UHGV virus genome: UHGV-0074709 | Length of the DNA stretch: 43,543 nucleotides | Strand: one strand, 5' to 3' | Source of the DNA: a virus | In this document: in pieces, positions 14,399 to 42,504 of the stretch | How positions within the stretch are numbered: position 1 is the stretch's first letter | How the letters are laid out: the number at the start of each line of letters is the position of its first letter | Translations under genes and position numbers: made by a program | The notes under the pieces: generated by a model | The model's database searches: none | What the model was told of the DNA's origin: nothing | Seen by the model: only the letters and a program-made list of their open reading frames with translations

Positions 14399-14914
14399 AT
14401 GATGATTATAGCCTACACGGATGCAACGATAGACGCAAAAGGGGTTGCCGGAATTGGTATTGTCATCATCAACGGGAGCAAGCGCAAGGAATATGCGTTG
14501 TTCACAAAATGCCGGACGATTAACGCCGCCGAGATATTCGCGATACACCTGGCAAGTATTTTAACGCACGGGCAGGCGCTTGTTTATACCGATTCGCAAA
14601 CGGCGCTATCCTATATTAAGGGTGAGATAAAGGATAAACCCCGGACGCGGGAGCAATACTTAAATCACCTCGAATGCAAATATTGGGCGTATCAGGTAAA
14701 GAAAAATCCGAACATTCGGGTTGAAAAGGTTAAAGCCCACACGAACAGGCGCAATCTGCACGCCGGAAATAACAAGCTTGCCGATACGCTGGCTATGCTT
14801 GGGCAACTAAAATATTATGAAAACGCGCGGGCTGTTGTCAAAAAAGAAAAACAAAAGTATGATAAAGCTACAAAATCAATTTTGCAGAAAAAAAAGAGCT
14901 CAAAATGCAGATAG
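14399..14914 (+). CDS. Ribonuclease HI-like protein
   Basis: YTDAT, TINAAE, VYTDSQ, KVKAH and N..AD.LA give the full catalytic motif set. Confidence 0.88.
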   Translation: MMIIAYTDATIDAKGVAGIGIVIINGSKRKEYALFTKCRTINAAEIFAIHLASILTHGQALVYTDSQTALSYIKGEIKDKPRTREQYLNHLECKYWAYQVKKNPNIRVEKVKAHTNRRNLHAGNNKLADTLAMLGQLKYYENARAVVKKEKQKYDKATKSILQKKKSSKCR

Positions 14915-15060
14915 GGTTTTTTGAATTGCCTGCAGGCTGGCAGGAATTAGAAACGGCAACCGGCAACACTATCTGCCACCGGTTCAACTTATCAAATACA
15001 ACCGGGGAAGAGTTTATGATAAACTATTCCGGCGCAACCGTCTTTGCCGAATATTTATAA
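14905..15060 (+). CDS. 51-aa hypothetical protein
   Basis: MQIGFFELPAGWQE...; overlaps the RNase H stop codon. Confidence 0.4.
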   Translation: MQIGFFELPAGWQELETATGNTICHRFNLSNTTGEEFMINYSGATVFAEYL

Positions 15061-15066
15061 TAAATC

Positions 15067-15122
15067 TTTAAAGAAAAGGGCTTTTTCTTCGTTTCTACGG
15101 CGGACAAGCCCTTTTAGGACTT
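15067..15122 (-). repeat. Orphan copy of the endolysin 3' end (direct repeat of 15880-15935)
   Basis: 31 bp with one mismatch, ~56 bp alignable; encodes VLKGLVRRRNEEKALFFKDLL*. Confidence 0.9.
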
Positions 15123-15743
15123 TGAATATTTATTTATAAAATTTTCAATAGTTTTCCCTCTTCTTATTCCGCTAATTAGCGTTCCTTTATTTATCCCTAT
15201 GTGTTCCGCCCATTCGGTTAAACACATTGTCTTTCCGCCATAAGTTTCTAAATGTGTTGTTCTTCTGTTTCTTGATTGTTGCTTAATAGTAGCCCAACGG
15301 CAATTCTCTGGAGAATAATCGCCATTTACATCAATCCTATCAATGGTCAAATTTGAAGAATATCCGTTTTCTAAAGCCCAGTCGCGAAAAGAAACAAAAT
15401 CATTGAGCCATTGAGAACATATTTTTATGCCTCTTTTCCCGTAGCGTTTAAAGCAATGACAATTAGGATTATAACATCGTTGTTTCATTCCGGCATATAT
15501 GTTATAAAGTCTTGTTCCATAGGAAAAATGTTTATAATTTTTGCCTTTGTTTTTTTCGTTTTTCTGACAACCGCAAGAAAATGTCTTTTTATTTAAAATT
15601 CCATCGGCTCTTGTAATATGGATTTTTCCGCAATCACAAATACACTTAAAAAATTTTCTTTTTCTATTTTTTTGATAAATATATAAAACTTCTAAAACGG
15701 TTAATCTTCCGTGTTTTTTTCCTACATAATCTTCATCATTCAT
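15114..15743 (-). CDS. HNH-type homing endonuclease
   Basis: GRLTV, CICDCG, MKQRCYNP, YGKRGI and TIDRIDVNGDYSPENCRWAT..Q..N motifs. Confidence 0.9.
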   Translation of the reverse strand: MNDEDYVGKKHGRLTVLEVLYIYQKNRKRKFFKCICDCGKIHITRADGILNKKTFSCGCQKNEKNKGKNYKHFSYGTRLYNIYAGMKQRCYNPNCHCFKRYGKRGIKICSQWLNDFVSFRDWALENGYSSNLTIDRIDVNGDYSPENCRWATIKQQSRNRRTTHLETYGGKTMCLTEWAEHIGINKGTLISGIRRGKTIENFINKYSKS

Positions 15744-15765
15744 TTTATTTGCCTTTATAAAAAAA

Positions 15766-15794
15766 TTGCCTGTGTAAAAAAATAGCACAGGCAA
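15766..15794. promoter_or_regulatory. Hairpin between the endolysin and HNH genes (terminator or translational control)
   Basis: TTGCCTGTG...CACAGGCAA inverted repeat. Confidence 0.45.
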
Positions 15795-15816
15795 TAGGCA
15801 TTTTGCTTTTCGGGAG

Positions 15817-16290
15817 CTACCCTAGTGCTATATATTTTGAATAATATTTTTTTTCAAAAAAATCAACATCTAAAATATTTTTAAAGAAAAAAAATCTTTC
15901 TTCTTTTCTACGGCGGACAAGCCCTTTTAAGACTTGCCCATTTGCTCTACACCAGTTCCATTCAGCAAAAGCTTGTTCCCATTTTTTTTCTTCAATATAT
16001 CTATAACATTTTGATAATTCAAAAGAACCACCAATATTATATGAAATGCTAAAAAGACTTGCTTTCTGTTCATCGGTAAAGTCTCCTTTTGGCAGCTTAA
16101 TTTGTGTTTTGCAATACCACTCTAAAAGCTGGCAAGCCCTGTCTTCTGTTATCGGTTTGTCTGTTAATTTTACCCTTGCGCCCGATTCGTAGTAGGTGGT
16201 TCCGTAGCCGATGGTGACTTTACCTGCTGGACACAGATACGGTTCGGACTTAAACCCCTCGTATTTTTTGATTAAATCGTAAATCTTCAT
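15817..16290 (-). CDS. Endolysin, GH24 lysozyme
   Basis: IKKYEG...YLCPAGKVTIGYG (E-8-C-5-T triad) and GLVRRRKEE; ATG 16290 preceded by GAGGGAG. Confidence 0.93.
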   Translation of the reverse strand: MKIYDLIKKYEGFKSEPYLCPAGKVTIGYGTTYYESGARVKLTDKPITEDRACQLLEWYCKTQIKLPKGDFTDEQKASLFSISYNIGGSFELSKCYRYIEEKKWEQAFAEWNWCRANGQVLKGLVRRRKEERFFFFKNILDVDFFEKKYYSKYIALG

Positions 16291-16475
16291 TGCTTGTCTT
16301 CTCCCTCTTTTTTCAATAAGACGTTCATAATGATTATATCCGGTTGGCGCTTTTGAGTAAAGCACCGTTTAAAGACGGTTTTCGCCTCAAACTTAGAGTT
16401 GGCTTTAACAATCTTTGTTTTAAATTCTTCTTCCCCTTTAATCCAATAAAAAACCTCATAATATTTTGAAATCAT
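16287..16475 (-). CDS. Hypothetical protein
   Basis: ATGA overlaps on both sides. Confidence 0.65.
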   Translation of the reverse strand: MISKYYEVFYWIKGEEEFKTKIVKANSKFEAKTVFKRCFTQKRQPDIIIMNVLLKKEGEDKQ

Positions 16476-16813
16476 CTTTTCCCTCGCTTTTTTGGTTTTA
16501 ATCTATACTTTTCAATTTGTTCCGCCTCAGATAAAGGCAAGCCCAAAACTTTAACCCGATAGTATACTGTATTATAGACAAGATTTTTCTCTATGCAGTA
16601 TTGCCTTAGAGATAAACCGTCCGTTTCCCACTCCCGGCGCAGCCTCTTGCGGTTGGCAGAGGCGCAAGCCTCGTCTACGGATATATCTTCGTCAATTATC
16701 CGCTGGCGCAAGGTGTGATAATTAAAACCGTTTTCATTGCACCAGTCAACGAGGCTTTGACCGTCCGACCGCCTATACATCGGAGTTTTCCATTTAACCC
16801 CTTTTTTCGGCAT
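16472..16813 (-). CDS. Small DNA-binding protein with two HNH-associated HTH-like repeats
   Basis: DGQSLVDWCNENGFNYHTLRQRI and DGLSLRQYCIEKNLVYNTVYYRV. Confidence 0.7.
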   Translation of the reverse strand: MPKKGVKWKTPMYRRSDGQSLVDWCNENGFNYHTLRQRIIDEDISVDEACASANRKRLRREWETDGLSLRQYCIEKNLVYNTVYYRVKVLGLPLSEAEQIEKYRLKPKKRGKR

Positions 16814-17063
16814 TTTTTTTGCTCCGGGCTATTTTTTCATAGTCGGCGGCAGTGCTGCCCTTTTTAACAATCATCCCGCAGTGGGAGCAACGCCACTTGC
16901 CGAAAAAGGCATTATCCACCCCGCATACAAGCCAGACAAAAAGCCACACCCCGCACGTGATAATAGATAAAAACAAATGCAAGATATGGGAAGTGCCTTT
17001 TTTCTGGATTAAAACTTGCTTTTCGCAATACGGGCAATATCCCGTTCCGTTTATTATAGCCAT
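16794..17063 (-). CDS. LITAF-like zinc-ribbon membrane protein
   Basis: CPYC, hydrophobic hairpin (HLFLSIITCGVWL), then CSHC. Confidence 0.75.
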   Translation of the reverse strand: MAIINGTGYCPYCEKQVLIQKKGTSHILHLFLSIITCGVWLFVWLVCGVDNAFFGKWRCSHCGMIVKKGSTAADYEKIARSKKNAEKRG

Positions 17064-17069
17064 TTTTAT

Positions 17070-17366
17070 TTACTCCTTTAAATAGTTGTTTTCGTTCAAT
17101 ATGTTTTCCGCCAGTTGTTCGGCGGCGTATTCTATGTCCATCTCAAATATGCTTTCAACGCTAAACACGCCGGTTCTGACTTCCGGTATACATTCAGAAT
17201 AATATTGTTTTGCCGCCATTATACACGCGCCCGTTTCTATAACTGTTTTAGGCGGACGGTATCCGTCAACATTGAAAGGACTAAAAGCAACCGCTTTATT
17301 GTCTGCTTTGCATATTCCCACAAAGCGCAAGTGGTCGATGCCTTTTATAACGATAAATTTTTCCAA
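17070..17366 (-). CDS. Hypothetical protein
   Basis: AAGGAG RBS; operon packing. Confidence 0.7.
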   Translation of the reverse strand: MEKFIVIKGIDHLRFVGICKADNKAVAFSPFNVDGYRPPKTVIETGACIMAAKQYYSECIPEVRTGVFSVESIFEMDIEYAAEQLAENILNENNYLKE

Positions 17367-17641
17367 TCTTTTATCTCCTTATAAATAGAGGTTAATTCCT
17401 CAAAGGCTTTTTGCTGGTTAGATTTTCCGGTTATATCCGAAAAGTCATCGGTAACATAAAGCCAGTGCATAGCGTTGTTTACGGATTGAGCGCACTTTAT
17501 AATAAGGTGTTGCAATTCCCGGTTGTTATGCTGCAACATCTCGCATAAATTGATTGTGGATAACAAAACATCAGAACTTCTTTTCCCGTCATTGCAAGTG
17601 TTTAATTCGTCTTGCGATTTTACAATGTTCTTTTTAGGCAT
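17345..17641 (-). CDS. Hypothetical protein
   Basis: Directly follows the exonuclease gene. Confidence 0.65.
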   Translation of the reverse strand: MPKKNIVKSQDELNTCNDGKRSSDVLLSTINLCEMLQHNNRELQHLIIKCAQSVNNAMHWLYVTDDFSDITGKSNQQKAFEELTSIYKEIKDWKNLSL

Positions 17642-17642
17642 T

Positions 17643-18485
17643 TTAATCGTTCCCCCTATTCAAATACCAGTTAGAATACCGCATATATACCCTTTCAGGA
17701 TATGCCGCGAAAATATGCTTGTCTTTTGTTTCTTCAAAATCCTTGATTTTGTGGGCTATGTTATACAGGTGGCTTGCCCAGATGTCCCGCGCCGCCTCAA
17801 ATGTTTCTTGTTCAATATTGCAGACGGCAATAACATCTTCATAACCTGGCTCGTTTGATTGAATAATAAAAACGAATTCAACCGGATATTCGCCGTATCT
17901 TTCCCGAACTGCCTCGCAATAGTGGACGGCTTGGAGCGGATATTGCAGTTTTTCAGGCCATTTAATAACACCGTCAATATCGGAGCTTGTTTTATAGTCA
18001 ATTAAAACAATTCCCTGACTTGTGCGCTTTATAGCGTCAATTTTAGCCTTGCAATCAACATCATTTTCTTCATTGTGCCAAACAATAGGAAGTTCGGCAG
18101 TTGCCCCGGTTACAATCTTTTTGACTTCCGGGTGGGAGCGAAGATTCGCCAGCATAGCCGTTGCGTGATTCCACTCATCCTGACTAATGACGATTTTCCC
18201 CGGGTTTTCCTTTTTTGTTTTCTGATATGCCTTGTTTTTCCGGGATTGTCCGAAATCGGCGATAACATACCGGTTTTGTGCCGCTCTGGGTTCAAGTAGG
18301 AGGCAATGAGCAAGCCCGCCGAATATTAATGCGTCTTTGTCTTCTTCCTGCACTGCGTCAGGATTAAAAGGCGAGGTGCGCCAAAACTCATACGGGCTTT
18401 TGTCGTATGTTTTTATTTGGCTGGCCGATATTGCCGGATAGGCGAAATAATCATCGTCTGATTTTATGTCAATATCTTTTAACAT
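17643..18485 (-). CDS. RecE/exonuclease VIII-like PD-(D/E)xK nuclease (DUF3799-like)
   Basis: ISASQIK, FGGLAHCLLLEP, CKAKID, IDYKTS and YPLQAVHY motifs. Confidence 0.9.
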   Translation of the reverse strand: MLKDIDIKSDDDYFAYPAISASQIKTYDKSPYEFWRTSPFNPDAVQEEDKDALIFGGLAHCLLLEPRAAQNRYVIADFGQSRKNKAYQKTKKENPGKIVISQDEWNHATAMLANLRSHPEVKKIVTGATAELPIVWHNEENDVDCKAKIDAIKRTSQGIVLIDYKTSSDIDGVIKWPEKLQYPLQAVHYCEAVRERYGEYPVEFVFIIQSNEPGYEDVIAVCNIEQETFEAARDIWASHLYNIAHKIKDFEETKDKHIFAAYPERVYMRYSNWYLNRGND

Positions 18486-20040: not shown

Positions 20041-21012
20041 ATGAGTAACAATAGAGGCATTTACGGCGGTGTGCCGTTTGGCGCTATTCAAACCAACTTT
20101 TACGACCAGCAGGAAACCTCTGCAGACGGGCGGTTAGCTTATGCAAGCGATATTGACCTCTGCGATGCCATATCTGTTGGCGAAGAGGGCGGTGTTGGCG
20201 TTGGCTATGGCGTAAAAATCGTCGCTTTGTCCGGTGCGGCAAAACGCCCGGGAATTAACGACCAGCAGATTATTCTGCCGGATAGTTCTTCAACCGCTGC
20301 TGATTTTGGCGGTATGGTTATCCGCACAATGGCTGGCAATACCGGCGCTGACGGCGAAAACTATATGCGCGAAAAATCAATGGCAACCGTTCTGCGTAAA
20401 GAAAGAGTCGGCGGGCGTATTTATGTTCGTATGGCTGACGCTTTTACGGCTGGGGCTTCCGCTTATTGGCGTATTGCCGAACGCGTGCCGAATAGCAATG
20501 TTAAAGTAGGGCGTTTGTGCGGCGCGGCAATCTCCGGGCAGGGAACAACCCCGGCGGTAGCTGCAACCGGAACTGTAACCTTTACCGAAAATCCGGCAGA
20601 TGGCGACACGCTCAAAATCGGAAGCACGACCTATACCTTTAAGACATCACCGGCAGCTGCAAATGATGTTGCCATTAAAGGGACTGTATATGAAACAGCC
20701 CAGAATTTGGCGGACGTTATCAACGGCGATTCCGGCGAGGCATACGAGGGGACAACCTCTCCGTCTTTGGATGTTTCGGCAGAAGTTGAGGCTGGCGTAA
20801 TGACTTTGACTGCACGCACGGCTGGAACTGGCGGCAACAGCTTGGCTTTGGTGCAGACCGGCGATTTTGCAAACGTATCCGGCGCGACCTTGTCCGGTGG
20901 CGCTAATTCGTCAACCTCATCGGTAACCGATACAGTGCAGCTGCCGAATGTTAAGTTTAGAAGTTCCGGCGCTGCTGGCGACTTGGCTTTGGTTGAATTT
21001 GTAACCGACTAG
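20041..21012 (+). CDS. Head decoration/cement protein with an inserted T/G/A-rich domain
   Basis: Lies between the protease and capsid genes; ATVLRK..GRIYV; insert ATGTVTFTENPADGDTL. Confidence 0.7.
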   Translation: MSNNRGIYGGVPFGAIQTNFYDQQETSADGRLAYASDIDLCDAISVGEEGGVGVGYGVKIVALSGAAKRPGINDQQIILPDSSSTAADFGGMVIRTMAGNTGADGENYMREKSMATVLRKERVGGRIYVRMADAFTAGASAYWRIAERVPNSNVKVGRLCGAAISGQGTTPAVAATGTVTFTENPADGDTLKIGSTTYTFKTSPAAANDVAIKGTVYETAQNLADVINGDSGEAYEGTTSPSLDVSAEVEAGVMTLTARTAGTGGNSLALVQTGDFANVSGATLSGGANSSTSSVTDTVQLPNVKFRSSGAAGDLALVEFVTD

Positions 21013-30238: not shown

Positions 30239-31103
30239 CTTTAAGCGAAATTTGGAGTTGTTAGTGGGACCGTTGAAAGATTATCAAGGGGACGGCAACA
30301 GCCAGCAGGCAATACGGATATTGTCTGACGGCTCAACTTCAACTTTGCGCATTAAAGCCAATATCACAAAAAGTATGATAAGTATTCCGAATGCGAGCCA
30401 GATTACGGTTTACGGGCTATCAAAAGAAACAAGAAACAAAATAATGCAGAGTCAAGCCAGCGTCCGCCTTTATGCTTGGTATGACGGGCAGCAGAAAGAG
30501 CTTGTCTTCCGGGGCGGGATTTTGAATTGCGTTGTCAACCGTGAGGATACGGATATACCGATAACGTTAATATCTCTTGACGGGCAGGGCGGATTTATGC
30601 GTGCGCCGGTTTCCGTATCATATACAAACGGGATACAGTTAAAAGATGTTGTCAAGGACGTTGCCGGAAAAATACCGGGCATAACGATTGACGATAGCCG
30701 GATTGATGTTTCCGGGCAAGTAGGCTTTTCCGGTATGGCATACGCCGGAGGAGCAAAAGAGTTTTTAGACCGGCTGGGCGGGCAATATGGCTTTAGCTGG
30801 AGCATTAACAACGGCGTTTTTGAGGCGGTAAGCGACAAGCGCGGTTTTAATGTAGAAACTTTGCTGGGCGCGGGGGTTTTGATAAAAGCCTCCCCCATTC
30901 TATCCGGACCCGCGCAACAGCAAATAGGGACTGACATTCAGGCGTTATACGTCCCGGGTGTCAGCCCCGCTCAATTTGTCCGGTTGCAAAGTTCAATAAA
31001 TACGGAATTGAATGGACGCTATAAAGTCCACACAATGAACTTGAGCTTAGACACAAAAGCGGATAGCTGGACAATGAGCATTCAAAGTTACAGGCAGGGG
31101 TAA
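30231..31103 (+). CDS. Baseplate hub protein
   Basis: N..QITVYGLS, VFRGGI, WSINNG and GRYKV motifs; TTG start after GAGG. Confidence 0.8.
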   Translation: MINFKRNLELLVGPLKDYQGDGNSQQAIRILSDGSTSTLRIKANITKSMISIPNASQITVYGLSKETRNKIMQSQASVRLYAWYDGQQKELVFRGGILNCVVNREDTDIPITLISLDGQGGFMRAPVSVSYTNGIQLKDVVKDVAGKIPGITIDDSRIDVSGQVGFSGMAYAGGAKEFLDRLGGQYGFSWSINNGVFEAVSDKRGFNVETLLGAGVLIKASPILSGPAQQQIGTDIQALYVPGVSPAQFVRLQSSINTELNGRYKVHTMNLSLDTKADSWTMSIQSYRQG

Positions 31104-32027: not shown

Positions 32028-33302
32028 TTAAAATTGTCCATCGTTACCCCCGTTGTCAATGAATAGGCTTTTGGATTTCTTAAATAGAACTTCAAACTCT
32101 CCAGTTCTTCCGCGTCTGTTTTTTGCCACGATTATTTTGGCTTTGCCTTTGACGCGCTCCATTTCTTCAAGCCATTTGTTGTATTTTTTTTCTTCTGTTT
32201 CTTCCGGTTTCTGCAACATTAACAAGTTTTCAGCCGTATAAACAAACATTACAAGGTTAGAATCCTGCTCAATACTGCCGGAACCGCGCAGGTCGGACAA
32301 TATCGGCGATTTAACGTCGCGCCCCGCGTTGGAGCGGTTTAACTGGCTCAACAATAAAATCGGAATATTTAAATCTTGCGCGATTATTTTCACTTTACGC
32401 GACAAGTAGGTTAAAAGCGCCAACTGGTCTTTAAACCGCTTTTCAGAGCGTAAAATATGCAGGTGGTCAATAATTATCAGGCTTAAATCCTTTTTTCCGG
32501 CGCATATCGCCGATATTTTTTCAACCGTAGTATCTGCGTCGTCTATAAATTCAAGAGGTAAATCATTTTCAAGGCTTTTAGACTTTTCAACAACCGTATA
32601 AAATTCTTCTTGAGTGATTTTTGAAAAATCCGATATGCGTAAAGAAGAACATACAAGCCGCTTGTGCATTTCAACTTTTGTCATTTCAAGCGAAAAATAT
32701 AAAACTTTGCCTCCGGCTTGCGCTATTTGCGTTGCAATATTCAGCGCCAGCGTGGTCTTTCCTCCGCCCGAATAACCGCCGAGCGTGATAAGTTCGCCCT
32801 TTTCAAAACCGCCGATAAGCTTGTCAAGGCTTGGCAACCCGGTTTTAACAACCCGCGGATTGTCTTTGCCCTGATATTCAAGTTCAGCGTCGGCTAAAAA
32901 TTTATCCGAGGCGTTTTCTTCGGATTTTGGGAATAATTCAAAATGCTCAATTTCAAAAGCTTTTGTTACGTCTTCGGTTGTGTATAACTTTTGACCAGCT
33001 ATTTTTGCAAGCTCCCTTTCTTTCCAGTCTTCCACTAACTTTAAGGCGTAACAGTCAAACATTATCGGCTTTGAAAACTTTGTGTCCCGGTTAAGTTCAA
33101 GCAATAACTGAAAATTTACTTTGCCTTTCAAGGAGTCGCGCAGGCTTAGCAAATCAAAACTTCCAAGCTCTACCATTGCCGAAAAAATTTCCCTTGCCGT
33201 TGCGTCCGGCAAAAATTCAGCCTTAAAATTTCCTTTAAGTCTTGTAAAATTTTCAGGGAAAGCGACAAGCTCACTTAAAAACGTGTATTCAGCCTCATTC
33301 AT
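32028..33302 (-). CDS. dnaB: Replicative DNA helicase
   Basis: GYSGGGKT, FSLEM, IIDHL, LSQLNR, DLRGSGSIEQD and KNRRGRTG motifs. Confidence 0.96.
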   Translation of the reverse strand: MNEAEYTFLSELVAFPENFTRLKGNFKAEFLPDATAREIFSAMVELGSFDLLSLRDSLKGKVNFQLLLELNRDTKFSKPIMFDCYALKLVEDWKERELAKIAGQKLYTTEDVTKAFEIEHFELFPKSEENASDKFLADAELEYQGKDNPRVVKTGLPSLDKLIGGFEKGELITLGGYSGGGKTTLALNIATQIAQAGGKVLYFSLEMTKVEMHKRLVCSSLRISDFSKITQEEFYTVVEKSKSLENDLPLEFIDDADTTVEKISAICAGKKDLSLIIIDHLHILRSEKRFKDQLALLTYLSRKVKIIAQDLNIPILLLSQLNRSNAGRDVKSPILSDLRGSGSIEQDSNLVMFVYTAENLLMLQKPEETEEKKYNKWLEEMERVKGKAKIIVAKNRRGRTGEFEVLFKKSKSLFIDNGGNDGQF

Positions 33303-33306
33303 TTTT

Positions 33307-33993
33307 TTACTTCCAGTCCGATGTTGCCCATTTTATCTCTTCCTCTTTATCGGCGTATCCGCCCTCAACAGCTTTTTGCCATTTTGATTTTTGCAGAAAA
33401 AAGTCAAAATCAGCTCGCCACTTTCCCGAATCTCCACGCAAAAAGGAGCTTTCGTCAAGTGCTTTTTCCATTTGGTTGATAAATTCATCAAACCCCCCGG
33501 CGTCTTTTATCCGTTGTTTGAGTTTATTTTTCCTTTCATCCGTCAAGGTTTTTATTTGGGGTAAACTGTATTTTTCTAAAACAGAATTGATTTTTTCAAT
33601 GTCAAATTCACGAAAAACAATTTTATTGTTTTTTAAAAATAATTCTTGTTCTAGTTCTTGTTTATGTTCTTCGTTTATGTTTATGTTTAGGATATCGTTC
33701 GGTATCCGATTGATATCGTTCGGTATCCGATTGATATCGTTCGGTATCCGATTGATATCGTTTTTTTCTCTCCAGTAATTTCTTGATGTTTCGCCATTTT
33801 TTTTGCAACGTGCATTAAAATCTTCAAAATCTTTGTCAATTTGTGATTTTATAAAACGCCATACGCCGCAATCAACATCAATATTTGGATATTGCAAAAT
33901 TGCCTGAAAAATAGCAGCTTGCTTTTCAATAGGTAAATCTGATAAAAGCTCCCACCATTCGGGATATATACGCGGAGAAAATTGCTTTTTCAT
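33307..33993 (-). CDS. Replication initiator (lambda O-like organisation)
   Basis: Upstream of DnaB; internal tandem repeats; C-terminal FLRG..WRADFDFFL..EGGY. Confidence 0.85.
   Translation of the reverse strand: MKKQFSPRIYPEWWELLSDLPIEKQAAIFQAILQYPNIDVDCGVWRFIKSQIDKDFEDFNARCKKNGETSRNYWREKNDINRIPNDINRIPNDINRIPNDILNININEEHKQELEQELFLKNNKIVFREFDIEKINSVLEKYSLPQIKTLTDERKNKLKQRIKDAGGFDEFINQMEKALDESSFLRGDSGKWRADFDFFLQKSKWQKAVEGGYADKEEEIKWATSDWK
33691..33762. repeat. 21-bp tandem repeats x3.4 (GATATCGTTCGGTATCCGATT), probable iterons/origin
   Basis: Perfect copies at 33691, 33712 and 33733, partial copy at 33754; AT-rich flank. Confidence 0.85.
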
Positions 33994-34614: not shown

Positions 34615-35831
34615 GTGTAAACGTTTACGGTATGACTTCAACGGGCTTTAAGCCTAAAAGGCTGCGCGATTTGCTTGACGAAACAATGGCAGATATTCAG
34701 GCAATAACGGACGAAGACGGGCAAGCCGTATTTATTAACGAAACGGACGACAGCATAATCGGGCAGTTCAACGCAATTATTTGCGAGCAGCTTGCCGATT
34801 GCTGGCAACAAGCATACGCCGCCAGCACGCAGTTTGACCCGCTTAATGCTTTCGGCGTGGCTTTGCGTTCGCTTGTTCAATTAAACGGCATTGTTCCGGC
34901 TTATGGTTCGGCAACGCAAATAAACGTTACTTTGACCGGGACTTCTGGCACAGTTGTTCCTGCCGGTTCGCAAATATCCGATGTAAACGCAAACACGATT
35001 TTTAGCTTGAATAGTGATGTTATCATCGGCAGCGCCGGGACGGGGACGGGAGTCGCCACTTGCAACACGCTCGGCGAAATTAACCCGGCAAACAACACGA
35101 TTATTCAGATTTTAACCCCGGTTTATGGTTGGCACAATGTAACCAATTCAAGCGTAGCGGTGCTTGGCGATGACCCGGAAACAGACAATCAGCTGCATAT
35201 CAAACAGCAGCGCGAAACGTCAAACACTTCATATTCGCAAGTTGACGCGCTATATGCCGGAATAACAAACCTTGCCGGGGTTGATTATGTGCGTATATAC
35301 CAGAACTGGACGCTGGAAACGGACGATAAAGGAATCCCGGCAAAAACGATTGCAGCGGTGGTAGACGGTGGCGACACAGAGGCGATTGCAAATGTTATGT
35401 GGCTTAAAGCGCCGATGTTGTCAAATTATGCCGGGAATTTACCATCGCCGGTAACAATGTTTGACCGATTCGGGCTTGCCTATCAAATAACATTTTACCG
35501 CCCGGAAAAAGTCCCGGTGTATATTGATTTGGATATAACCATAACAGACGCGAGTATTTACCCGGCGGATGCCTACGACCAGATAAAGCAAAATATAATT
35601 GATTATGCAGCATACGGGCTTAATTCTTCAAACGGTTTTCCGCCGGGTTCTCCGGTTATTTATAGCCGCCTTTATACGCCTATTAACGAAGTCCCGGGCT
35701 TTAAAATCAATCATCTTTATATTGGGACGAGCGCAAGCCCGACCGGGACGAGCGACTTGGAGATGAGCTGGCTGCAGGTGGCGGAGTTTACAGCGGAAAA
35801 CATCAATATTGAACAATCAGTCGGGGCTTAA
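34611..35831 (+). CDS. Baseplate J-like protein
   Basis: DP..A.G..L, G.DPETD..L and VVDGGD..IA motifs. Confidence 0.9.
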   Translation: MSVNVYGMTSTGFKPKRLRDLLDETMADIQAITDEDGQAVFINETDDSIIGQFNAIICEQLADCWQQAYAASTQFDPLNAFGVALRSLVQLNGIVPAYGSATQINVTLTGTSGTVVPAGSQISDVNANTIFSLNSDVIIGSAGTGTGVATCNTLGEINPANNTIIQILTPVYGWHNVTNSSVAVLGDDPETDNQLHIKQQRETSNTSYSQVDALYAGITNLAGVDYVRIYQNWTLETDDKGIPAKTIAAVVDGGDTEAIANVMWLKAPMLSNYAGNLPSPVTMFDRFGLAYQITFYRPEKVPVYIDLDITITDASIYPADAYDQIKQNIIDYAAYGLNSSNGFPPGSPVIYSRLYTPINEVPGFKINHLYIGTSASPTGTSDLEMSWLQVAEFTAENINIEQSVGA

Positions 35832-36562: not shown

Positions 36563-37723
36563 ATGGTAGATATAAGAACAGTTACATTGCCGGCACTTTG
36601 GGCTGATGACGCTATAACCGAAATCCCTACCCCACCGATAGCAAATACGACCTACCGCAACACGGACTTGGGTTCAACCGAATTGCTGGCAGGCTGGCCG
36701 TATCAAAAAATTGTTGACTCTGCCGACTTCAACCAGACGTTGTGGCTTATATCAAACCTTGTCAAATCTTGCGAGCAATACGGCATTATGCCTTGGTGCG
36801 CCTCAACGACCTACAAACAAAACGGAATTTGCCTTGCCTCAAACGGAATTTTCTACTGGGCGAAAAAGGAAAACACTGGCGTAAATCCGGTAAATGATTC
36901 CGGTATGACAAACTGGGGCGTATTCCTAGACCCGGGAGATAACTTTGTTACGGAAACGGTTTTAACGAGCCAAATAAACCTATGCGAAAAGCTGGCAAAC
37001 AAGACACAAACGTTGTCCTCTTCATCCACCTCAACTCAATATCCGAGCGCCAAAGCCGTATATGATAATATCAACAACCTGCAGAACAGCAAACAGAACA
37101 ACATAACCGGCGGCGCAAGCACAATTACAAGTGCAAATTTGACCGCTGATAGAGTTTTGGTTAGTAGTGATAGTGGTAAAGTTGATACGGCGCTTAATAT
37201 TACACGTAATGAACTAAATATGCTTGACGGCGTGACCTCAAATATCCAAAGCCAGCTTAACGGTAAACAGGCATCCGGCTCTTATATGACCCTTTCCGGA
37301 AACCAGACCGCGGGCGGAATAAAGACATTTTCAGGGCAGATAATCCGTTCAGCAACACCAGGAGCAAGCGACAATTCAAACCAAGTTCCAAATACCGCTT
37401 GGGTCAACAGTCGCATAACGTCTATTATGAATAGTCGGAGCGGAGTTGAACAACCGAATTATGCAACGTTTCATGGCTTAATAACTTCAAGTTCTGGTAG
37501 TGAACAGTCAACAACCGCACCAAGTAAAGGCTGGATTTTCGCTCGTATGCAGTTAGATAATAACACAACCAGAACTGTATCCGTAAACGGCAAGGAAATA
37601 ATCAGCGTCAGAAGTGGCGCTGATTATTTGAACGGCAATGAATGTGGCGCTTGTTTCCCCGTCAATTCCGGCGATACTATCTCTTGTTTTAGAGCCACTA
37701 TTTATTTTTGCTCAAATTATTAA
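36563..37723 (+). CDS. Tail fibre: constant N-terminal region (aa 1-288) fused to the currently expressed cassette A (37427-37723)
   Basis: Follows the baseplate genes; GW...FN N-terminus; recombination site S1 encodes RITSIMN at the junction. Confidence 0.92.
   Translation: MVDIRTVTLPALWADDAITEIPTPPIANTTYRNTDLGSTELLAGWPYQKIVDSADFNQTLWLISNLVKSCEQYGIMPWCASTTYKQNGICLASNGIFYWAKKENTGVNPVNDSGMTNWGVFLDPGDNFVTETVLTSQINLCEKLANKTQTLSSSSTSTQYPSAKAVYDNINNLQNSKQNNITGGASTITSANLTADRVLVSSDSGKVDTALNITRNELNMLDGVTSNIQSQLNGKQASGSYMTLSGNQTAGGIKTFSGQIIRSATPGASDNSNQVPNTAWVNSRITSIMNSRSGVEQPNYATFHGLITSSSGSEQSTTAPSKGWIFARMQLDNNTTRTVSVNGKEIISVRSGADYLNGNECGACFPVNSGDTISCFRATIYFCSNY
37408..37435 (+). repeat. Shufflon site S1 (expression site): CAGTCGCATAA CGTCTA TTATGAATAGT
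   Basis: 16-bp core ATAACGTCTATTATGA shared by six sites; dif-like 11-6-11 layout. Confidence 0.92.
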
Positions 37724-38010
37724 ACAAGCGGGAAATAGTAGGCGGCTCCAATACCGTTTCCGGTAGTAGTAAACACAACAACATCACCTGCCGAAACGTA
37801 TAAAGGAAACGAGGCTATACCCACCATATAGTAACCGTCCACGGTTGAAACCGGTATATTATTATTATTGACTTTTATCTTGTCTATACGTGCTGAGTTA
37901 GTGTTTGATGTGGCTATAATCAAGCAGTCATAAGGTGCGGTAAACGAGGCTAAATTGGATACAGTCCCCATACTGGCATAGTTCGCTTTTCGTATTCCGG
38001 AAGTATTCAT
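37720..38010 (-). CDS. Alternative tail-fibre C-terminal cassette B
   Basis: Begins at the ATG inside S2; similar to cassettes A and D (TAP, FP..GD, YF); shares a TTAA stop with cassette A. Confidence 0.88.
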   Translation of the reverse strand: MNTSGIRKANYASMGTVSNLASFTAPYDCLIIATSNTNSARIDKIKVNNNNIPVSTVDGYYMVGIASFPLYVSAGDVVVFTTTGNGIGAAYYFPLV

Positions 38011-38029
38011 AATAGACGTTATGCGATTC
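38002..38029 (-). repeat. Shufflon site S2: GAATCGCATAA CGTCTA TTATGAATACT
   Basis: Inverted copy of S1. Confidence 0.92.
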
Positions 38030-38032
38030 GTA

Positions 38033-38060
38033 TTGACTACAACCGAAAACCGGTTAATAT
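38033..38060 (+). promoter_or_regulatory. Candidate promoter for the 38097 gene
   Basis: TTGACT-16-TAATAT with AACCG/CGGTT dyads. Confidence 0.45.
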
Positions 38061-38096
38061 AAAAACGGTTGCAACCAAAAATAGGAGTTTAAACTT

Positions 38097-38636
38097 ATGA
38101 CTGATGAAGTTATTGAAACGGCGGAAAATGTAGCCGCGCCGGAATATCCAAAACATACGGAGTGGGCGGATTTTGATATTGTCAATGGCAAAGTTGCCGT
38201 GATGAAACTTAACAAGCCCTATACGGAATATGACGTATCGTTTGAAGACCATTTTAACGGCAGCGATGAATATAAAACAGAAGAACGTTATGCACTTTAT
38301 ACGGCTTGTGCGATTGAGTGCAATAAAAACGGCGGCGAATATACGATTGACTGCTGGAAAAACCGCTACACGGTGCGAAAAGTTGCCGATATTGAGAAAA
38401 TCCACTACGAGAGTATGACGGATGAAGAAAAGGCAAAATATGACGCAGACAAGAAAAAAAACGACCTTGAAAACGAAAAAAGCGAACTTAACGGCAAACT
38501 TAGGGCGCTGGACTATATCGGCGTTAAAATTGCCACCGGCAGAGCTACGGCAGAAGAATACGCCTCGCAAATTGAGAATATGAAAAGTTATGCACAACGT
38601 ATAAATGAGATTGACAAAGAACTTTCGACGTTATAA
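38097..38636 (+). CDS. Probable tail-fibre assembly/chaperone protein
   Basis: AGGAG RBS; C-terminal L..LDYIGVKIA...R..INE pattern; position in the fibre locus. Confidence 0.7.
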   Translation: MTDEVIETAENVAAPEYPKHTEWADFDIVNGKVAVMKLNKPYTEYDVSFEDHFNGSDEYKTEERYALYTACAIECNKNGGEYTIDCWKNRYTVRKVADIEKIHYESMTDEEKAKYDADKKKNDLENEKSELNGKLRALDYIGVKIATGRATAEEYASQIENMKSYAQRINEIDKELSTL

Positions 38637-38700
38637 ATAATACTTGTTGAAATTGAATGTCAATTCACATCCTTTTAAATAGTTAGTGTTTATACAAGGG

Positions 38701-38733
38701 CAAGGCAGCTGTCAGGTGGCTGCCTTGTTTTTT
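38701..38733. terminator. Rho-independent terminator between convergent genes
   Basis: CAAGGCAGC-9-GCTGCCTTG followed by T6. Confidence 0.75.
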
Positions 38734-38763
38734 ATTGTCCTTTTATCGCTGTTGATTAAATGC

Positions 38764-39045
38764 TTAATAGCCTATTGCTGTCCAAAAATATGGGGCTGAA
38801 GATACCCCACCATAGAGATATATTGTAAAACCTGTTGTTGAAACATTATTAACCGCCGCCGCATAATTATAGCCGCTTCCTGAATTTGGCGTTATGTTTA
38901 TAGCAGGACTTTGGGTAAACGAATTTTCAAAAGTAATCGTCCGAGAAGAACTTGTTGATGTCCCCCATTGCACGATTAACCCGTTAGAAAATTTAATATA
39001 ATTGTCTCCTTTTTGGGAGGTATAACCGTACCCCACACTATTCAT
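38764..39045 (-). CDS. Alternative tail-fibre C-terminal cassette C (gp53-like domain)
   Basis: ATG inside S3; YIKFSNGLIVQWG...WTAIGY. Confidence 0.88.
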   Translation of the reverse strand: MNSVGYGYTSQKGDNYIKFSNGLIVQWGTSTSSSRTITFENSFTQSPAINITPNSGSGYNYAAAVNNVSTTGFTIYLYGGVSSAPYFWTAIGY

Positions 39046-39064
39046 AATAGACGTTATGCGCCCG
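39037..39064 (-). repeat. Shufflon site S3: CGGGCGCATAA CGTCTA TTATGAATAGT
   Basis: Copy of the core; its TAA is also the VRR-NUC stop codon. Confidence 0.92.
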
Positions 39065-39464
39065 TTTTTAAGTTCTTCACAAAATTGATAGCGTCCCCAA
39101 GCCCGCGCCAAATTGTATATTCAAAGCCGAGCGCCCGGACTTTCTGTTCAAATTCCCGTTGCGTGTCCGATTGCCGCCCGGTTGCGGTTTTTACCTCTAC
39201 AAAATAGGTTTTTCCTGCGTATAGGATAATTAAATCGGAAACACCGGAACGAACACCCTCGGCTTTAAGTTTTGCCGCAACGACCGGATTGCGCCAGCCG
39301 CCATTCGGAACGGCAAAAAAGGTAAAATCCTTGCGTGAGTTTTCCACAAGCTCTAAATACTGCACAATGGCGCATTGTATTTTGTGTTCTTCATCGTGTG
39401 GCTTTTGGCGCACGTTAAGCCCGCTTTTTTTAAGCTCCAGCGCCCAAGGGTTATTTTTTGGCAT
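39054..39464 (-). CDS. VRR-NUC nuclease (Holliday junction resolvase-like)
   Basis: EHKIQ, FAVPNGG, GVSDL and FVEVKT..GRQS..Q motifs. Confidence 0.92.
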   Translation of the reverse strand: MPKNNPWALELKKSGLNVRQKPHDEEHKIQCAIVQYLELVENSRKDFTFFAVPNGGWRNPVVAAKLKAEGVRSGVSDLIILYAGKTYFVEVKTATGRQSDTQREFEQKVRALGFEYTIWRGLGDAINFVKNLKTGA

Positions 39465-39606
39465 AATCTATCCTCTTATAAAATAAAACCCCTCTATCGT
39501 AAAATAAAGGGGCTTTGTGTAGGTATGGTTTGTTAAGATAATAATATGATGATATACTTTTTGGTTGGAACTATATGAGAAAAATTATATCGCCTCTTAT
39601 GTTATC

Positions 39607-39864
39607 CTATTTTCCCGGTTTGTCAACATCAAACAAAGAAAATTGAACTTTCTCTGCCTTTTTTAGCTTTTCTTCATCTCGGACGGTTGTGCCGATAATG
39701 AAGTCTTTAACCGTTATTAAGGTGCATAAAATCTGCTCCATAACCTCAATTTGATAAGCGGCATCCTTTTCGGATATTTTCTTAATCTCAACCCAGCGCG
39801 GGTATAACTTGCGCCTATATTCAAGCTCCCGCCGGATTGCCGCTATTTGCTCGTTAATTGTCAT
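39607..39864 (-). CDS. Hypothetical phage protein
   Basis: ATGA overlap with recT; RELEYRRKLYPRWV. Confidence 0.75.
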   Translation of the reverse strand: MTINEQIAAIRRELEYRRKLYPRWVEIKKISEKDAAYQIEVMEQILCTLITVKDFIIGTTVRDEEKLKKAEKVQFSLFDVDKPGK

Positions 39865-40781
39865 TTTTTAGCCTCGTCTTTGTTGTTTTCCGGTTGTTGC
39901 GTCTGATTAAATAACGGCTCTGGCTCTTCAAAATTAACTCCGGGCTTGCCGCTTTCTTCATCGTCAAGCTGGATATTGCCGTAGTCTATCGGCATATTTT
40001 CAAGCCCGGCAGTTAATTCTTGATTATCCACATATTCAATTTTTCCGTCTTTTTCCGCCGATTCGTCTTTGATAAACGCCGTTTGCAATTCAAGCGACAT
40101 TATACCCCACTTGCCTAAAAGTTGGCGCAACATCGTTTTAAATGCCATTTGGTCAAAATTTTTACTCCAAAAGCTCTCTTTTTTATCGGCTTTTAAGTCG
40201 TATTTATAGCTCTGCGAATAGGTTTTGGCGTGTTCTTCCATTTTGGATTTGCTCCAATAAATAGTCTTCTTAAACCCGTTCAAAAGCTCAAAATATGCCA
40301 TATATCCGATGACTTCCCGCTTTTCCCGCTCTTCTTCATCGGCAATAAAGGAAAATAAAAACTTTCCGGTGTATTTGTCGCGTCCCAAAAATTCGCCCTG
40401 CCGAACTTCCATAACGTCTAAATCCGCATATTGCCCGGAACGCAAGGCAAGCTGTATATATCCCCTGTATCCTAGCTGGAACGTTGCAACAACCCGGATT
40501 AAATTGCCTCTCTTGTCTTTTTCCTTAAAAGGCACAATGTAGTAGTAACCAAGCTGCGGACTCGGCGCAAGGTTTAGGCTTTCCCCGGTTAATCCTGCTG
40601 AAAATATGGTTGAGTGTTCGCAAGCCGCGAGCTGCGGGTTTGTTGACACAGCCGAAACAATGTGCGTAATGAATGATTGCCCGCGCTCCCCGCCTATAAC
40701 ATCGGCTACTTTTTGCTTTACAGCCGTTGTCGCCATAAATGAAGAAAAGTTGCCGCTTTTTGCCGGTTTTTGTAAACTCAT
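39861..40781 (-). CDS. recT: RecT-like ssDNA annealing protein
   Basis: LNLAPSPQLGYYYIVPF, FQLGYRGYIQLALRSGQY and W...FDQMAFKT motifs. Confidence 0.93.
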   Translation of the reverse strand: MSLQKPAKSGNFSSFMATTAVKQKVADVIGGERGQSFITHIVSAVSTNPQLAACEHSTIFSAGLTGESLNLAPSPQLGYYYIVPFKEKDKRGNLIRVVATFQLGYRGYIQLALRSGQYADLDVMEVRQGEFLGRDKYTGKFLFSFIADEEEREKREVIGYMAYFELLNGFKKTIYWSKSKMEEHAKTYSQSYKYDLKADKKESFWSKNFDQMAFKTMLRQLLGKWGIMSLELQTAFIKDESAEKDGKIEYVDNQELTAGLENMPIDYGNIQLDDEESGKPGVNFEEPEPLFNQTQQPENNKDEAKK

Positions 40782-40874
40782 TTTTTTACTCCTTTTAAAA
40801 ATGTTAGCATTGAAACATAGTTAAATATATTCAAAATTTAAATAATGTAAAGATATTTTTTTATTTTTTTAACA

Positions 40875-40902
40875 GTGGCGCATAACGTCTATTATGAATA
40901 CA
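40875..40902 (+). repeat. Shufflon site S4: GTGGCGCATAA CGTCTA TTATGAATACA
   Basis: Direct copy of S1; the left arm matches the E. coli dif XerC arm at 9/11. Confidence 0.92.
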
Positions 40903-41202
40903 AGCCGCCCCTTAAACTATGCAAGCCAAACAGCGGTTTCTTTTCCTTTAAGAACTTCAAGATATACAGCCCCGTCGCAGGGGGTTTATATGATATACGC
41001 CAAGTGGGCAGGTATAAATTCGGGTATTACTTGCTATGTGAATAATAAACCAATAGGCGCAGGTGGTAACAGCCAATCTGGTACTGCATATATAGACAAT
41101 GGCTCCAGCGCTTTTATTCCTCTAAATACTGGTGATGTATTATATTTTTCAGATAATTGCCGACAAGTTTTTTATGCTTATTTTGTGCCGTATGCGGGTT
41201 AA
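40894..41202 (+). CDS. Alternative tail-fibre C-terminal cassette D
   Basis: ATG inside S4; similar to cassettes A and B; shares a TTAA stop with cassette E. Confidence 0.88.
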   Translation: MNTSRPLNYASQTAVSFPLRTSRYTAPSQGVYMIYAKWAGINSGITCYVNNKPIGAGGNSQSGTAYIDNGSSAFIPLNTGDVLYFSDNCRQVFYAYFVPYAG

Positions 41203-41480
41203 TACCCGATAGCCAGCCATTGAAAAGCTGCTGTATCATTGTCGGTGCATTGTGTTTTAAATCCCGTTGTCGTAATTTCCCAGATAGACATTTCTTTATC
41301 AGTCGCCCCAGATGAATGTGAAGATTGATAGTTTTTAACACAAACAACAGAAGACGCGTTTGTAAAAGGTATGTTGAACGTATAAGTGATAGTAGATGAT
41401 GTAGTAACCCGTTCCTCTCCCCACTGGATAATAAGTCCGTTAAGATTTATATAACCGCTTCCCTTGGTTGTAGTATTCAT
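41199..41480 (-). CDS. Alternative tail-fibre C-terminal cassette E (gp53-like domain)
   Basis: ATG inside S5; GYINLNGLIIQWG...WLAIGY, paralogous to cassette C. Confidence 0.88.
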   Translation of the reverse strand: MNTTTKGSGYINLNGLIIQWGEERVTTSSTITYTFNIPFTNASSVVCVKNYQSSHSSGATDKEMSIWEITTTGFKTQCTDNDTAAFQWLAIGY

Positions 41481-41499
41481 AATAGACGTTATCAGACGC
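41472..41499 (-). repeat. Shufflon site S5: GCGTCTGATAA CGTCTA TTATGAATACT (degenerate left arm)
   Basis: Core conserved; outer part of the left arm divergent. Confidence 0.88.
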
Positions 41500-41505
41500 T
41501 AGGAT

Positions 41506-41907
41506 TTATGCCGTACGTTTCCAAATATTAACTGTTAAAGCCGTCCTTGTAACAGTGCCGACAATACCGGAATTATTTGCGTCTGATGTTAAACCTAGCA
41601 ATTTACTTCCTGACGGCCGCGTGCCTGCATTGCCAGATTGAACAACGCCGATATTTTTGCCGTATGCCTCACTTGTTAAGCTCGGGAAAAACCAGCCGTA
41701 CCCATTATCACCTTGCGAACAACCGAAATTTGCATCTCTGTTTGTCCAGCCCATACTTTTTCCGTTTCCTTTGATTGGGACACTTGTGTTAACGGAAGTA
41801 ATCAAAGACGAGCCTACTTTTTGCCAAGTGCCTATGCCAAGCGCTTGTAGCGGGCAGGTGCTTTGCGTACCAAAATAGAGGCTGCCGACCGGGTAAACCG
41901 TCCTCAT
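41506..41907 (-). CDS. Alternative tail-fibre C-terminal cassette F
   Basis: ATG inside S6; YPVGSLY...GTW...VNIWKRTA fibre/baseplate C-terminal motif. Confidence 0.88.
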   Translation of the reverse strand: MRTVYPVGSLYFGTQSTCPLQALGIGTWQKVGSSLITSVNTSVPIKGNGKSMGWTNRDANFGCSQGDNGYGWFFPSLTSEAYGKNIGVVQSGNAGTRPSGSKLLGLTSDANNSGIVGTVTRTALTVNIWKRTA

Positions 41908-41926
41908 AATAGACGTTATGCGACTG
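41899..41926 (-). repeat. Shufflon site S6: CAGTCGCATAA CGTCTA TTATGAGGACG
   Basis: 24-bp perfect inverted match to S1. Confidence 0.92.
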
Positions 41927-42012
41927 TCTGTGTATAACTTTGTTTTATGTTGAAAAATACAAATTGAGTAAATAAATTTAAGATAAAATTAACTATTTTG
42001 CGAGGGGTAACA

Positions 42013-42504
42013 ATGGAAACAAAGTTCTGTAAAAAGTGCGGAAAAGAAAAGCCCGTATCCGAGTTCATACCAGACGGACGATATAGGTGCGGGTATCAAA
42101 CGTATTGCCGAAAGTGCTGGAATGAATACCAGAAAATGCGCCGGCTTGGCAAGAGCGAGAAGAAAGTTTGCCGGACGTACGGGCGCGAGTTGCCGATTAG
42201 TGCTTTCCCGAAAGATAAAGGATATAAAAGCGGACGCAGCAATCAATGTCGGGATTGCTACAATAAGCAGCACCGCGAGGCGCTGGAAAGGCGAAAAGAG
42301 AATGGACTTTGTTTAACCGATAAGGAAAGGAAAGAAAGGCAGGCAATAGTGGGTTTTGAACAAAAGCTCGGCGGGTTTAAGGTGTCAATCTTAAATTATG
42401 CCAAAAACGGAGAATATAAATATACAGTCGCCAGCACAAAAGGCGACTTCTTTCAAACAAATTCAAAAGAAGAGTTTATCAATTTCATAAAAGAAAGGGT
42501 GTGA
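42013..42504 (+). CDS. Zinc-binding protein with repeated CxxC modules
   Basis: KFCKKCGKEKPVSEF, CRKC and CRDC motifs; GAGGGG RBS before ATG 42013. Confidence 0.75.
   Translation: METKFCKKCGKEKPVSEFIPDGRYRCGYQTYCRKCWNEYQKMRRLGKSEKKVCRTYGRELPISAFPKDKGYKSGRSNQCRDCYNKQHREALERRKENGLCLTDKERKERQAIVGFEQKLGGFKVSILNYAKNGEYKYTVASTKGDFFQTNSKEEFINFIKERV

Follow-up and report, generated by a model that had tools for sequence, protein, structure and literature searches.

How does a tailed phage exchange the tips of its tail fibres when no recombinase gene can be detected beside them? The question is raised by virus genome UHGV-0074709, a stretch of 43,543 nucleotides (here called the window, at its full length), in which the layout at the end of the tail-fibre gene is that of a tail-fibre shufflon with six tips, served by six crossover sites that resemble dif, the chromosomal site of the recombinases XerC and XerD (XerCD). 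Because the sites closely copy the dif arms of the probable host and the phage has no detectable recombinase, it is likely that host XerC and XerD catalyse the tip switching, a reading to which we would give a probability of about 0.78 on the sequence evidence. The earlier note on this DNA had proposed host XerCD as the driver of the inversions, and the host dif match and the recombinase searches described below support that proposal, catalysis itself being the step that we infer.

Crossover sites and rearrangements of the fibre locus

The core ATAA-CGTCTA-TTATG is present in six exact copies in the window, at 37415+, 38008-, 39043-, 40882+, 41478- and 41905- (span 37415-41919), against a mean of 1.42 core matches in the shuffled-sequence control even with three mismatches allowed. 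The sites, numbered S1 to S6 (Table 1), have the orientations +, -, -, +, -, -, so that, of the 15 possible pairs, seven are in direct repeat, and all six consist of two 11-bp arms around one common 6-bp centre with the inner motif ATAA-N6-TTAT. The 11-6-11 layout with an invariant CGTCTA spacer, as first described, holds for the six 28-bp sites of the window, whereas among relatives the same arms also enclose AGTCTA, CTTCTG and CATCTA. The further claim that TTATG doubles as the methionine codon of the fusion is borne out, in that its ATG opens a tip cassette at 6/6 sites and at S1 stands in frame with the tail-fibre gene; the quoted likeness of S4 to the E. coli dif (left arm 9/11, spacer 4/6) was reproduced in a count by eye.

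The locus has been rearranged repeatedly among relatives. IMG/VR holds seven related loci, and in the five distinct ones that contain multiple sites, a given left context is followed by differing cassettes. Cassette D follows the S6 context in the window and the S3 context in L037 and L041, is placed on the fibre in L040 and is absent from L036; the positions of A1 and A2 are exchanged in L037; and the RecT block is on the minus strand in the window, L036 and L042 and on the plus strand in L037, L038 and L040. Across the five relatives the left-arm variants track the left context and the right-arm variants track the cassette, which puts the exchange inside the 15-bp core. L036 corresponds to the right end of the window minus the S6-S5 module, which looks like a loss of that module, a gain in the lineage of the window being equally possible, and direct pairs therefore probably recombine as well. 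Among 165 stored fibre homologs (the best 120 of 873 matches plus 45 cluster members) the junction motif is found in 136, which fall into 20 tip clusters; the other 29 include fragments, homologs that have the same site behind a different upstream sequence, and several fibres that lack the site and have a fixed tip. Run contigs from gut, feces, chicken gut and birds add more joints at the sites, for example S4-left/S1-right (X2) and S4-left/cassette D (X5), and in several runs contigs end at the sites; shufflon parts left uncovered in these runs were given no weight.

Some joints are of another kind. At L037:12150-12175, and at the same spot in L036, L040 and L042, two left arms are fused head to head and the intervening cassettes are missing (the window counterparts are 38733-38740 and 40875), and a similar two-left-arm joint (39048/41916) was seen in run X6 in one contig at depth 3.8. 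Two phage loci combine CGTCTA and CTTCTG sites (L016:3781, 4414, 6002; L014:3719, 6002, 6417), and cassette D is common to them and the family of the window.

The sites are also used outside this family. In G004, an unrelated 72-kb phage with neither a capsid nor a terminase match to the window, the fibre junction is built on these sites too, and a prophage tail-fibre gene in G560 (L348:65, G560:C13) has a dif-arm site with spacer CATCTA at the WVNSRITSIM junction, the contig ending 65 bp further on. When genome_contigs was scanned for the exact site, 15 loci from unrelated taxa were returned, none of them from a host; some are dif-like and some lie within coding sequence. Sites that are near-palindromic or dif-like and have the CGTCTA spacer were noted in L044, L046, L057, L043, L051, L056 and L045 (Firmicutes, Chloroflexi, archaeal and Emcibacteraceae metagenome-assembled genomes, MAGs), and three such sites in G008. 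Viral loci with a single site of the same core (e.g. L013, L015, L018, L033 and most CTTCTG loci) were treated as unrelated or as chance matches.

The probable host and its dif site

The host was sought among 401 sampled genomes from the class (Alphaproteobacteria) to which a MAG titled Emcibacteraceae belongs, of which 297 contain CGYATAA-N6-TTATG (a tally that includes the unpublished G251, on which nothing else rests), and a few small genomes with phage-like right arms led to the 283-genome order of G240. In that order the alphaproteobacterial genome G553 has an array of clustered regularly interspaced short palindromic repeats (CRISPR) adjoining cas-like genes. Five of its 21 spacers match the window with 0-2 mismatches (two at 0, one at 1, two at 2; Table 1), one more matches with 5 and another with 7, and against the relative G001 the counts are 0, 0, 0, 0, 1, 2 and 3; reversed-spacer controls reached 9 mismatches at best. 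At positions -6/-5 all protospacers shown have CC. These spacer matches make G553 the likely host of the phage. Matches to the left half of the window were also obtained in 12 of the 37 genomes neighbouring G553 (best 77-86% identity over 250-380 bp). In size and habitat the host order would be compatible with RF32, an uncultured gut order. Of the other orders examined, those of G034 (3 genomes) and G210 (28) gave no close phage link, and that of G118 (80 genomes) weak phage matches only, the best being 74% over 100 bp in a prophage of G420. No integrated copy of the tail half was found among the 283 host-order genomes and no fibre relatives in genome_contigs. For the second phage family, a 20-kb piece searched against 283 genomes (two candidates scored per genome) gave no CRISPR match and one hit outside an array, so that its host is deduced only from the shared cassettes and arms.

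G553 has one exact CGCATAA-N6-TTATG site, TTGTCGCATAA TATATA TTATGTATACT, and the looser TCGYATAA-N6-TTATG is present in 246/283 genomes of the order of G240 and 71/80 of that of G118. That this site is the host dif is supported by the polarity of the FtsK orienting polar sequences (KOPS), of which 7 are forward and 0 reverse ahead of the site in G553, 9/0 in the preceding 100 kb and 1/6 after it in G620, and 12/0 in the preceding 80 kb and 1/11 after it in G458; the points at which GC skew turns are 34 and 20 kb distant. Two proteins of G553 have XerC and XerD as their best NCBIfam hits, and the genome encodes FtsK-gamma too, as do 5/5 host genomes tested, and XerC/XerD orthologs are present across the two orders.

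For the central comparison all 28-mers on both strands of the window were scored against the 22 arm bases of the G553 dif only. The six shufflon sites rank first to sixth (18, 18, 18, 17, 17 and 16 of 22) and the next 28-mer scores 15; the best score in each of 100 shuffled windows was 14 (three times), 15 (60), 16 (34) or 17 (three), and never 18. The three best sites thus score above all shuffled windows, whereas the score of S6 taken singly would be unremarkable. In S1-S5 the six outer bases of the right arm agree on average at 3.5-4.2/6 with 26 dif sites of the host order, against 1.7-2.3/6 with 18 other alphaproteobacterial sites, and the right arm of S1 and S3 is identical to the dif right arm in G068, G418 and G422. 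The spacer CGTCTA matches that of the host dif at 3/6. Phage integration at dif in the manner of integrative mobile elements exploiting Xer (IMEX) was considered and rejected on that spacer and on finding no integrated copy of the tail half in the 283 host-order genomes.

Locating the host by CRISPR and aligning its dif with the sites was the route that the earlier note had pointed to, and it yields left arms matching at 7-9/11 and right arms matching the XerD arm at 9-10/11 in S1-S5 (7/11 in S6). The same note had allowed for XerC acting alone on account of a diverged right arm; this part finds no support, since the right arm is diverged only from that of E. coli and, being close to the host dif in five sites, is a host XerD arm, which makes such a restriction unnecessary. 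The broader idea that one Xer protein, XerC, exchanges strands and that replication or a resolvase completes the junction draws on the XerC-first pathways at cer and VGJ-phi attP (PMC5357621), as well as on the fused left arms of the relatives and the two-left-arm joint in one contig. We consider it very unlikely, because a right arm better conserved against the host dif than the left implies that XerD binds; if XerC exchanged strands first while XerD was bound, that would be a variant of catalysis by both host proteins and not a rival to it.

Candidate recombinases

A dedicated recombinase gene beside the cassettes, the usual trait of a shufflon, is not found here. Pfam integrase and resolvase families have hits in 0/71 window open reading frames (ORFs), and no integrase was found in the window by any search made of it; PF00589 is found in 0/4 and PF00239 in 0/5 related records, with three records at least 90% complete in either search; and a host-recombinase profile run against six frames of the window, G001 and G004 gave nothing under E 0.3. 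If the host enzymes act instead, the left arm would be the binding site of XerC and the right arm that of XerD, in the manner of dif, strands would be exchanged across the 6-bp spacer, and a new tip would be joined to the constant fibre at the ATG within the XerD arm. Inverted site pairs would then invert the DNA between them and direct pairs would excise or take it up. Xer partners require identical or nearly identical centres, inverted pdif pairs invert (10.1101/2024.04.09.588662; PMC9947245), and an inner motif of the ATAA-N6-TTAT type is apparently essential (10.1101/2024.04.09.588662). Given this need for matching centres, the private spacer CGTCTA would let phage sites recombine with each other and keep them apart from chromosomal dif and from the host's own switches.

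Such switches appear to exist. In the clade around G553, 27 extra dif-arm sites were recorded in 18 genomes inspected; about a dozen listed matches, uninspected or in other contexts, were left out, and 165 matches stand outside the list. One copy lies in frame inside a giant cysteine-rich gene that has no match in Pfam and whose product, 1,900-2,050 aa long in complete copies, begins with a signal-like N-terminus; there the site translates as GSYNxSY about 1,200-1,600 residues in; partner copies adjoin ADP-glucokinase and addA-like genes, and in G548 a reversed cysteine-rich cassette is found downstream (cysteine-rich loci L342:3399-9122, L352:2382-8534, L344, L350, L354 and L358; partner sites L341, L343, L345, L351 and L353). 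By hand count 21 of the 27 extra sites are at most 250 bp from a contig end, which fits a switching locus and could also be caused by repeats. In the order of G118, an inverted dif-arm pair in G463 encloses a segment of about 250 bp that precedes two pilin-like genes, and inverted pairs flank two convergent pilin-like genes in G464 and three in G479 (L192:7563/7824, L193:7159/8254, L194:316/1699, L198:7058), with no adjacent recombinase; the pilin label comes from weak prepilin matches below the cut-off. With their private spacers, these pairs are candidate promoter and gene invertons. Three contig ends in G279 (L195:6837, L196:7177, L197:7043) have the same left flank, a dif-arm site and the spacer TTTACA, and in five host-clade genomes (L361-L365) xerD is on the same contig as a boundary site of the putative chromosomal switch, 21-24 kb away.

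Partner sites share one spacer in 12/12 genomes with at least two inspected sites, and nine spacers are found across genomes; since partner matching is the known Xer rule, this counts for catalysis by XerCD. XerC and XerD are moreover the sole tyrosine-recombinase clusters present in all seven of the site-bearing host-clade genomes tested (G548, G550, G553, G554, G555, G558 and G560), and it is likely that the surface proteins of the host lineage are themselves switched by XerCD. Alternatively, the host might have a third tyrosine recombinase, of Xer descent and dedicated to this task, which could read dif-like arms in trans and drive the switches of host and phage alike. It would solve the problem of FtsK activation, each host genome has 1-4 extra tyrosine recombinases, and a cluster of about 200 aa is common to G463, G464 and G279, all of which have extra sites. 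We nevertheless regard it as distinctly unlikely, for the largest cluster apart from XerC and XerD is found in 3/7 host-clade genomes, the fetched host switch loci contain no tyrosine recombinase, and the arms track the lineage's own dif base by base.

The same constancy of the arms bears on two mechanisms unrelated to Xer. In serine recombinases the strand exchange spans 2 bp, and the enzyme binds the bases on either side. A host serine invertase supplied in trans, comparable to Mpi of Bacteroides, would be in keeping with resolvase/invertase genes in 5/5 host genomes tested and with the supply in trans proposed for a Bifidobacterium prophage inversion (PMC6109161); two conserved 11-bp dif arms and a 6-bp centre that changes as a block, matched between partners, make it extremely improbable. 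Homologous recombination of short repeats by the phage's RecT and an exonuclease, or by RecA, with the likeness to dif a relic, has in its favour that RecT lies inside the shufflon and that a PD-(D/E)XK exonuclease is encoded in the phage away from it. The perfect runs shared between sites are only 16-24 bp, however, G004 has the sites and by tblastn no RecT or exonuclease homolog, and recombination by homology would not preserve the dif arms where the spacers vary together between partners, so that this too seems highly improbable.

Several points weigh against catalysis by host XerCD. XerCD at dif normally requires FtsK at the septum, and no activator, whether an FtsK route, an accessory sequence or a Xaf-type factor, was identified among the phage features examined; the window has 4 KOPS (3 toward, 1 away), too few to read. 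With direct pairs present, deletions by Xer would be expected as well, and RecT, which lies between S1 and S4, would be among the DNA lost. Some fibre homologs have fixed tips without a site, and in L014, L016 and L041 the fibre junction and the cassettes do not all have one spacer; with two spacer classes, the fibre junction and the spare cassettes of L014 and L016 may not recombine. The rearrangements were seen between contigs and relatives, not within one population, the CRISPR matches come from one genome only (G553), and its XerC and XerD score just below the NCBIfam equivalog cut-offs (314 vs 335; 295 vs 330). The serine resolvase/invertase genes belong here as well, as does the fragmentation of the host assemblies, in which a shared third recombinase could be missed. 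Binding, cleavage and a requirement for XerC/D at the sites are predictions, and in Acinetobacter, plasmid sites recombined at less than 1% (10.1101/2024.04.09.588662).

The surrounding phage genome and relation to known systems

The window is apparently a whole, circularly permuted myophage genome in which one 60-bp repeat contains both ends; terminase, portal, capsid, sheath and baseplate genes were found. The tail-fibre gene, preceded by baseplate J and DUF2612 genes, extends over 36563-37723 with its current tip. The cassettes encode 93-133 aa, and a role of the tips in receptor binding, with a change of receptor on switching, is suggested by position and Pfam matches, the single-sequence model of tip B1 being too poor to search with (predicted local distance difference test score, pLDDT, 59). 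The 179-aa ORF within the shufflon has no match in Pfam or PHROG searches, and a 32% identical homolog directly follows the tail-fibre gene of a prophage in G420. The 168-aa ORF on the other flank has PHROG matches to endonuclease and Lar-like families and a 34% identical homolog adjoining the shufflon of G004.

Table 1. Positions in the window of the crossover sites, fibre parts, tip cassettes, neighbouring genes and protospacers; arm matches are to the G553 dif.
Feature	Position	Strand	Remarks
Tail-fibre constant N-terminal part	36563..37426	+	ends ...WVNSRITSI; PHROG tail-fibre hit
S1, expressed junction	37408..37435	+	CAGTCGCATAA CGTCTA TTATGAATAGT; 18/22 arm matches
Tip cassette A1, 98 aa	37427..37723	+	now fused to fibre; homolog silent in L037
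Tip cassette A2, 96 aa	37720..38010	-	silent; fused to fibre in L037
S2	38002..38029	-	GAATCGCATAA CGTCTA TTATGAATACT; 18/22 arm matches
179-aa ORF inside shufflon	38097..38636	+	possibly a fibre chaperone, judging only from position
Tip cassette C, 93 aa	38764..39045	-	silent; Gp53-like tail-fibre C-terminal domain, PF21882 above cut-off
S3	39037..39064	-	CGGGCGCATAA CGTCTA TTATGAATAGT; 17/22 arm matches
Passenger block: VRR-NUC, 85-aa ORF, RecT	39054..40781	-	flips with shufflon
S4	40875..40902	+	GTGGCGCATAA CGTCTA TTATGAATACA; 18/22 arm matches
Tip cassette B1, 102 aa	40894..41202	+	silent
Tip cassette B2, 93 aa	41199..41480	-	silent; Gp53-like C-terminal domain, PF21882 above cut-off
S5 (GATAA variant)	41472..41499	-	GCGTCTGATAA CGTCTA TTATGAATACT; 17/22 arm matches
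Tip cassette D, 133 aa	41506..41907	-	Gp10 C-terminal hit, PF21939; between directly repeated S6 and S5
S6	41899..41926	-	CAGTCGCATAA CGTCTA TTATGAGGACG; 16/22 arm matches
168-aa zinc-finger-like ORF	41998..42504	+	speculative candidate accessory factor; flanks shufflon in both phage families
Protospacer	17144..17173	+	0 mismatches
Protospacer	20174..20203	+	0 mismatches
Protospacer	30482..30511	-	2 mismatches (0 in G001)
Protospacer	30746..30775	-	2 mismatches (0 in G001)
Protospacer	35297..35326	-	1 mismatch

Elsewhere in the window, a gene of 20-aa (60-bp) tandem repeats crosses the contig ends (43336-43543 and 1-260), and blocks for replication, recombination and lysis (14399-18485, 32028-33993, 39054-40781), mostly on the reverse strand, are interspersed with head and tail genes. 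A Mu-F-like head gene (10952-12658) has an intein hit and contains, on the opposite strand, a 285-aa ORF (11738-12595, minus) with helix-turn-helix and weak nuclease-like hits. A search of the phage collection gave distant matches only, below 35% identity, and Atlas searches returned viral clusters of unknown function and nothing else.

It is tempting to extend the argument beyond this phage. We lean, with little more than even confidence, towards XerCD, the housekeeping resolvase of chromosome dimers, serving in these uncultured gut Alphaproteobacteria as a phase-variation enzyme of general use that is directed to its targets by the 6-bp spacers, with one code for dif, others for the surface-protein and pilin switches of the host, and others again that at least three phage lineages have adopted for shuffling their tips. 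If so, host and phage would run receptor and anti-receptor switching on one enzyme that is hard for the host to lose, and a gene-fusion shufflon with dif arms and no enzyme of its own, common to phages and host chromosomes, would add programmed phase variation to the roles of XerCD. Searches anchored on recombinases would miss such switches, for which dif arms plus a private spacer constitute the search rule, and natural sets of non-interfering spacers could provide parallel recombination addresses for one enzyme pair. The question is also raised of how XerCD becomes activated away from dif.

Within the literature searched, which left most subscription journals outside, no paper was found in which XerCD/dif is the driver of a fibre shufflon in a phage or of a chromosomal switch of surface proteins, and the accessible part of PMC9881135 does not mention Xer. 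The fibre inversion systems in the literature examined bring their own invertase, and Xer in mobile elements is associated with integration, dimer resolution and the traffic of pdif modules. The arrangement of a constant N-terminus and silent C-terminal tips, each behind a crossover site, is that of Min (p15B), Gin, Cin and the Rin system of Bifidobacterium prophages (PMC6109161). Those systems carry their own invertase, and the Rin sites are 11-bp repeats, whereas in the present phage no invertase was detected and the sites have dif arms; the same source describes one locus without a flanking recombinase, for which its accessible part names no enzyme. The Rci/sfx shufflon of R64 (PMC11852207) is similar in being of the tyrosine type and in that the left arm varies whereas the core and the right arm are conserved. 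It differs in that Rci adjoins the shufflon, the sites are 12-7-12 and only inversion occurs, whereas the phage sites are 11-6-11, their enzyme would act in trans, and in L036 a module differs between direct sites (by loss, or by gain in the window). Action from a distance is known from the mba switch of Ureaplasma parvum (PMC3599477), where a recombinase annotated as XerC inverts surface-antigen loci; unlike the pair proposed here, it is not a XerCD/dif system, as its inverted repeats are not dif and it was CodV that bound a putative dif. Use of host XerCD through dif-like sites, if correct here, would be shared with the IMEX phages CTX-phi, VGJ-phi and TLC-phi (PMC5357621). Those integrate at dif, in contrast to a spacer agreeing with that of dif at 3/6 only and six sites within the phage genome. 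The pdif (pXerC/D) modules of Acinetobacter, with several dif-like sites and centres that differ from that of dif, also offer a parallel, and there host XerCD reversibly inverts, fuses and resolves between sites with matching centres (PMC9947245; 10.1101/2024.04.09.588662; PMC12907356). The pdif sites flank whole accessory genes, whereas the site described here lies in frame within a structural gene of a tailed phage, supplies the methionine of the fusion and swaps the tips of the fibre.

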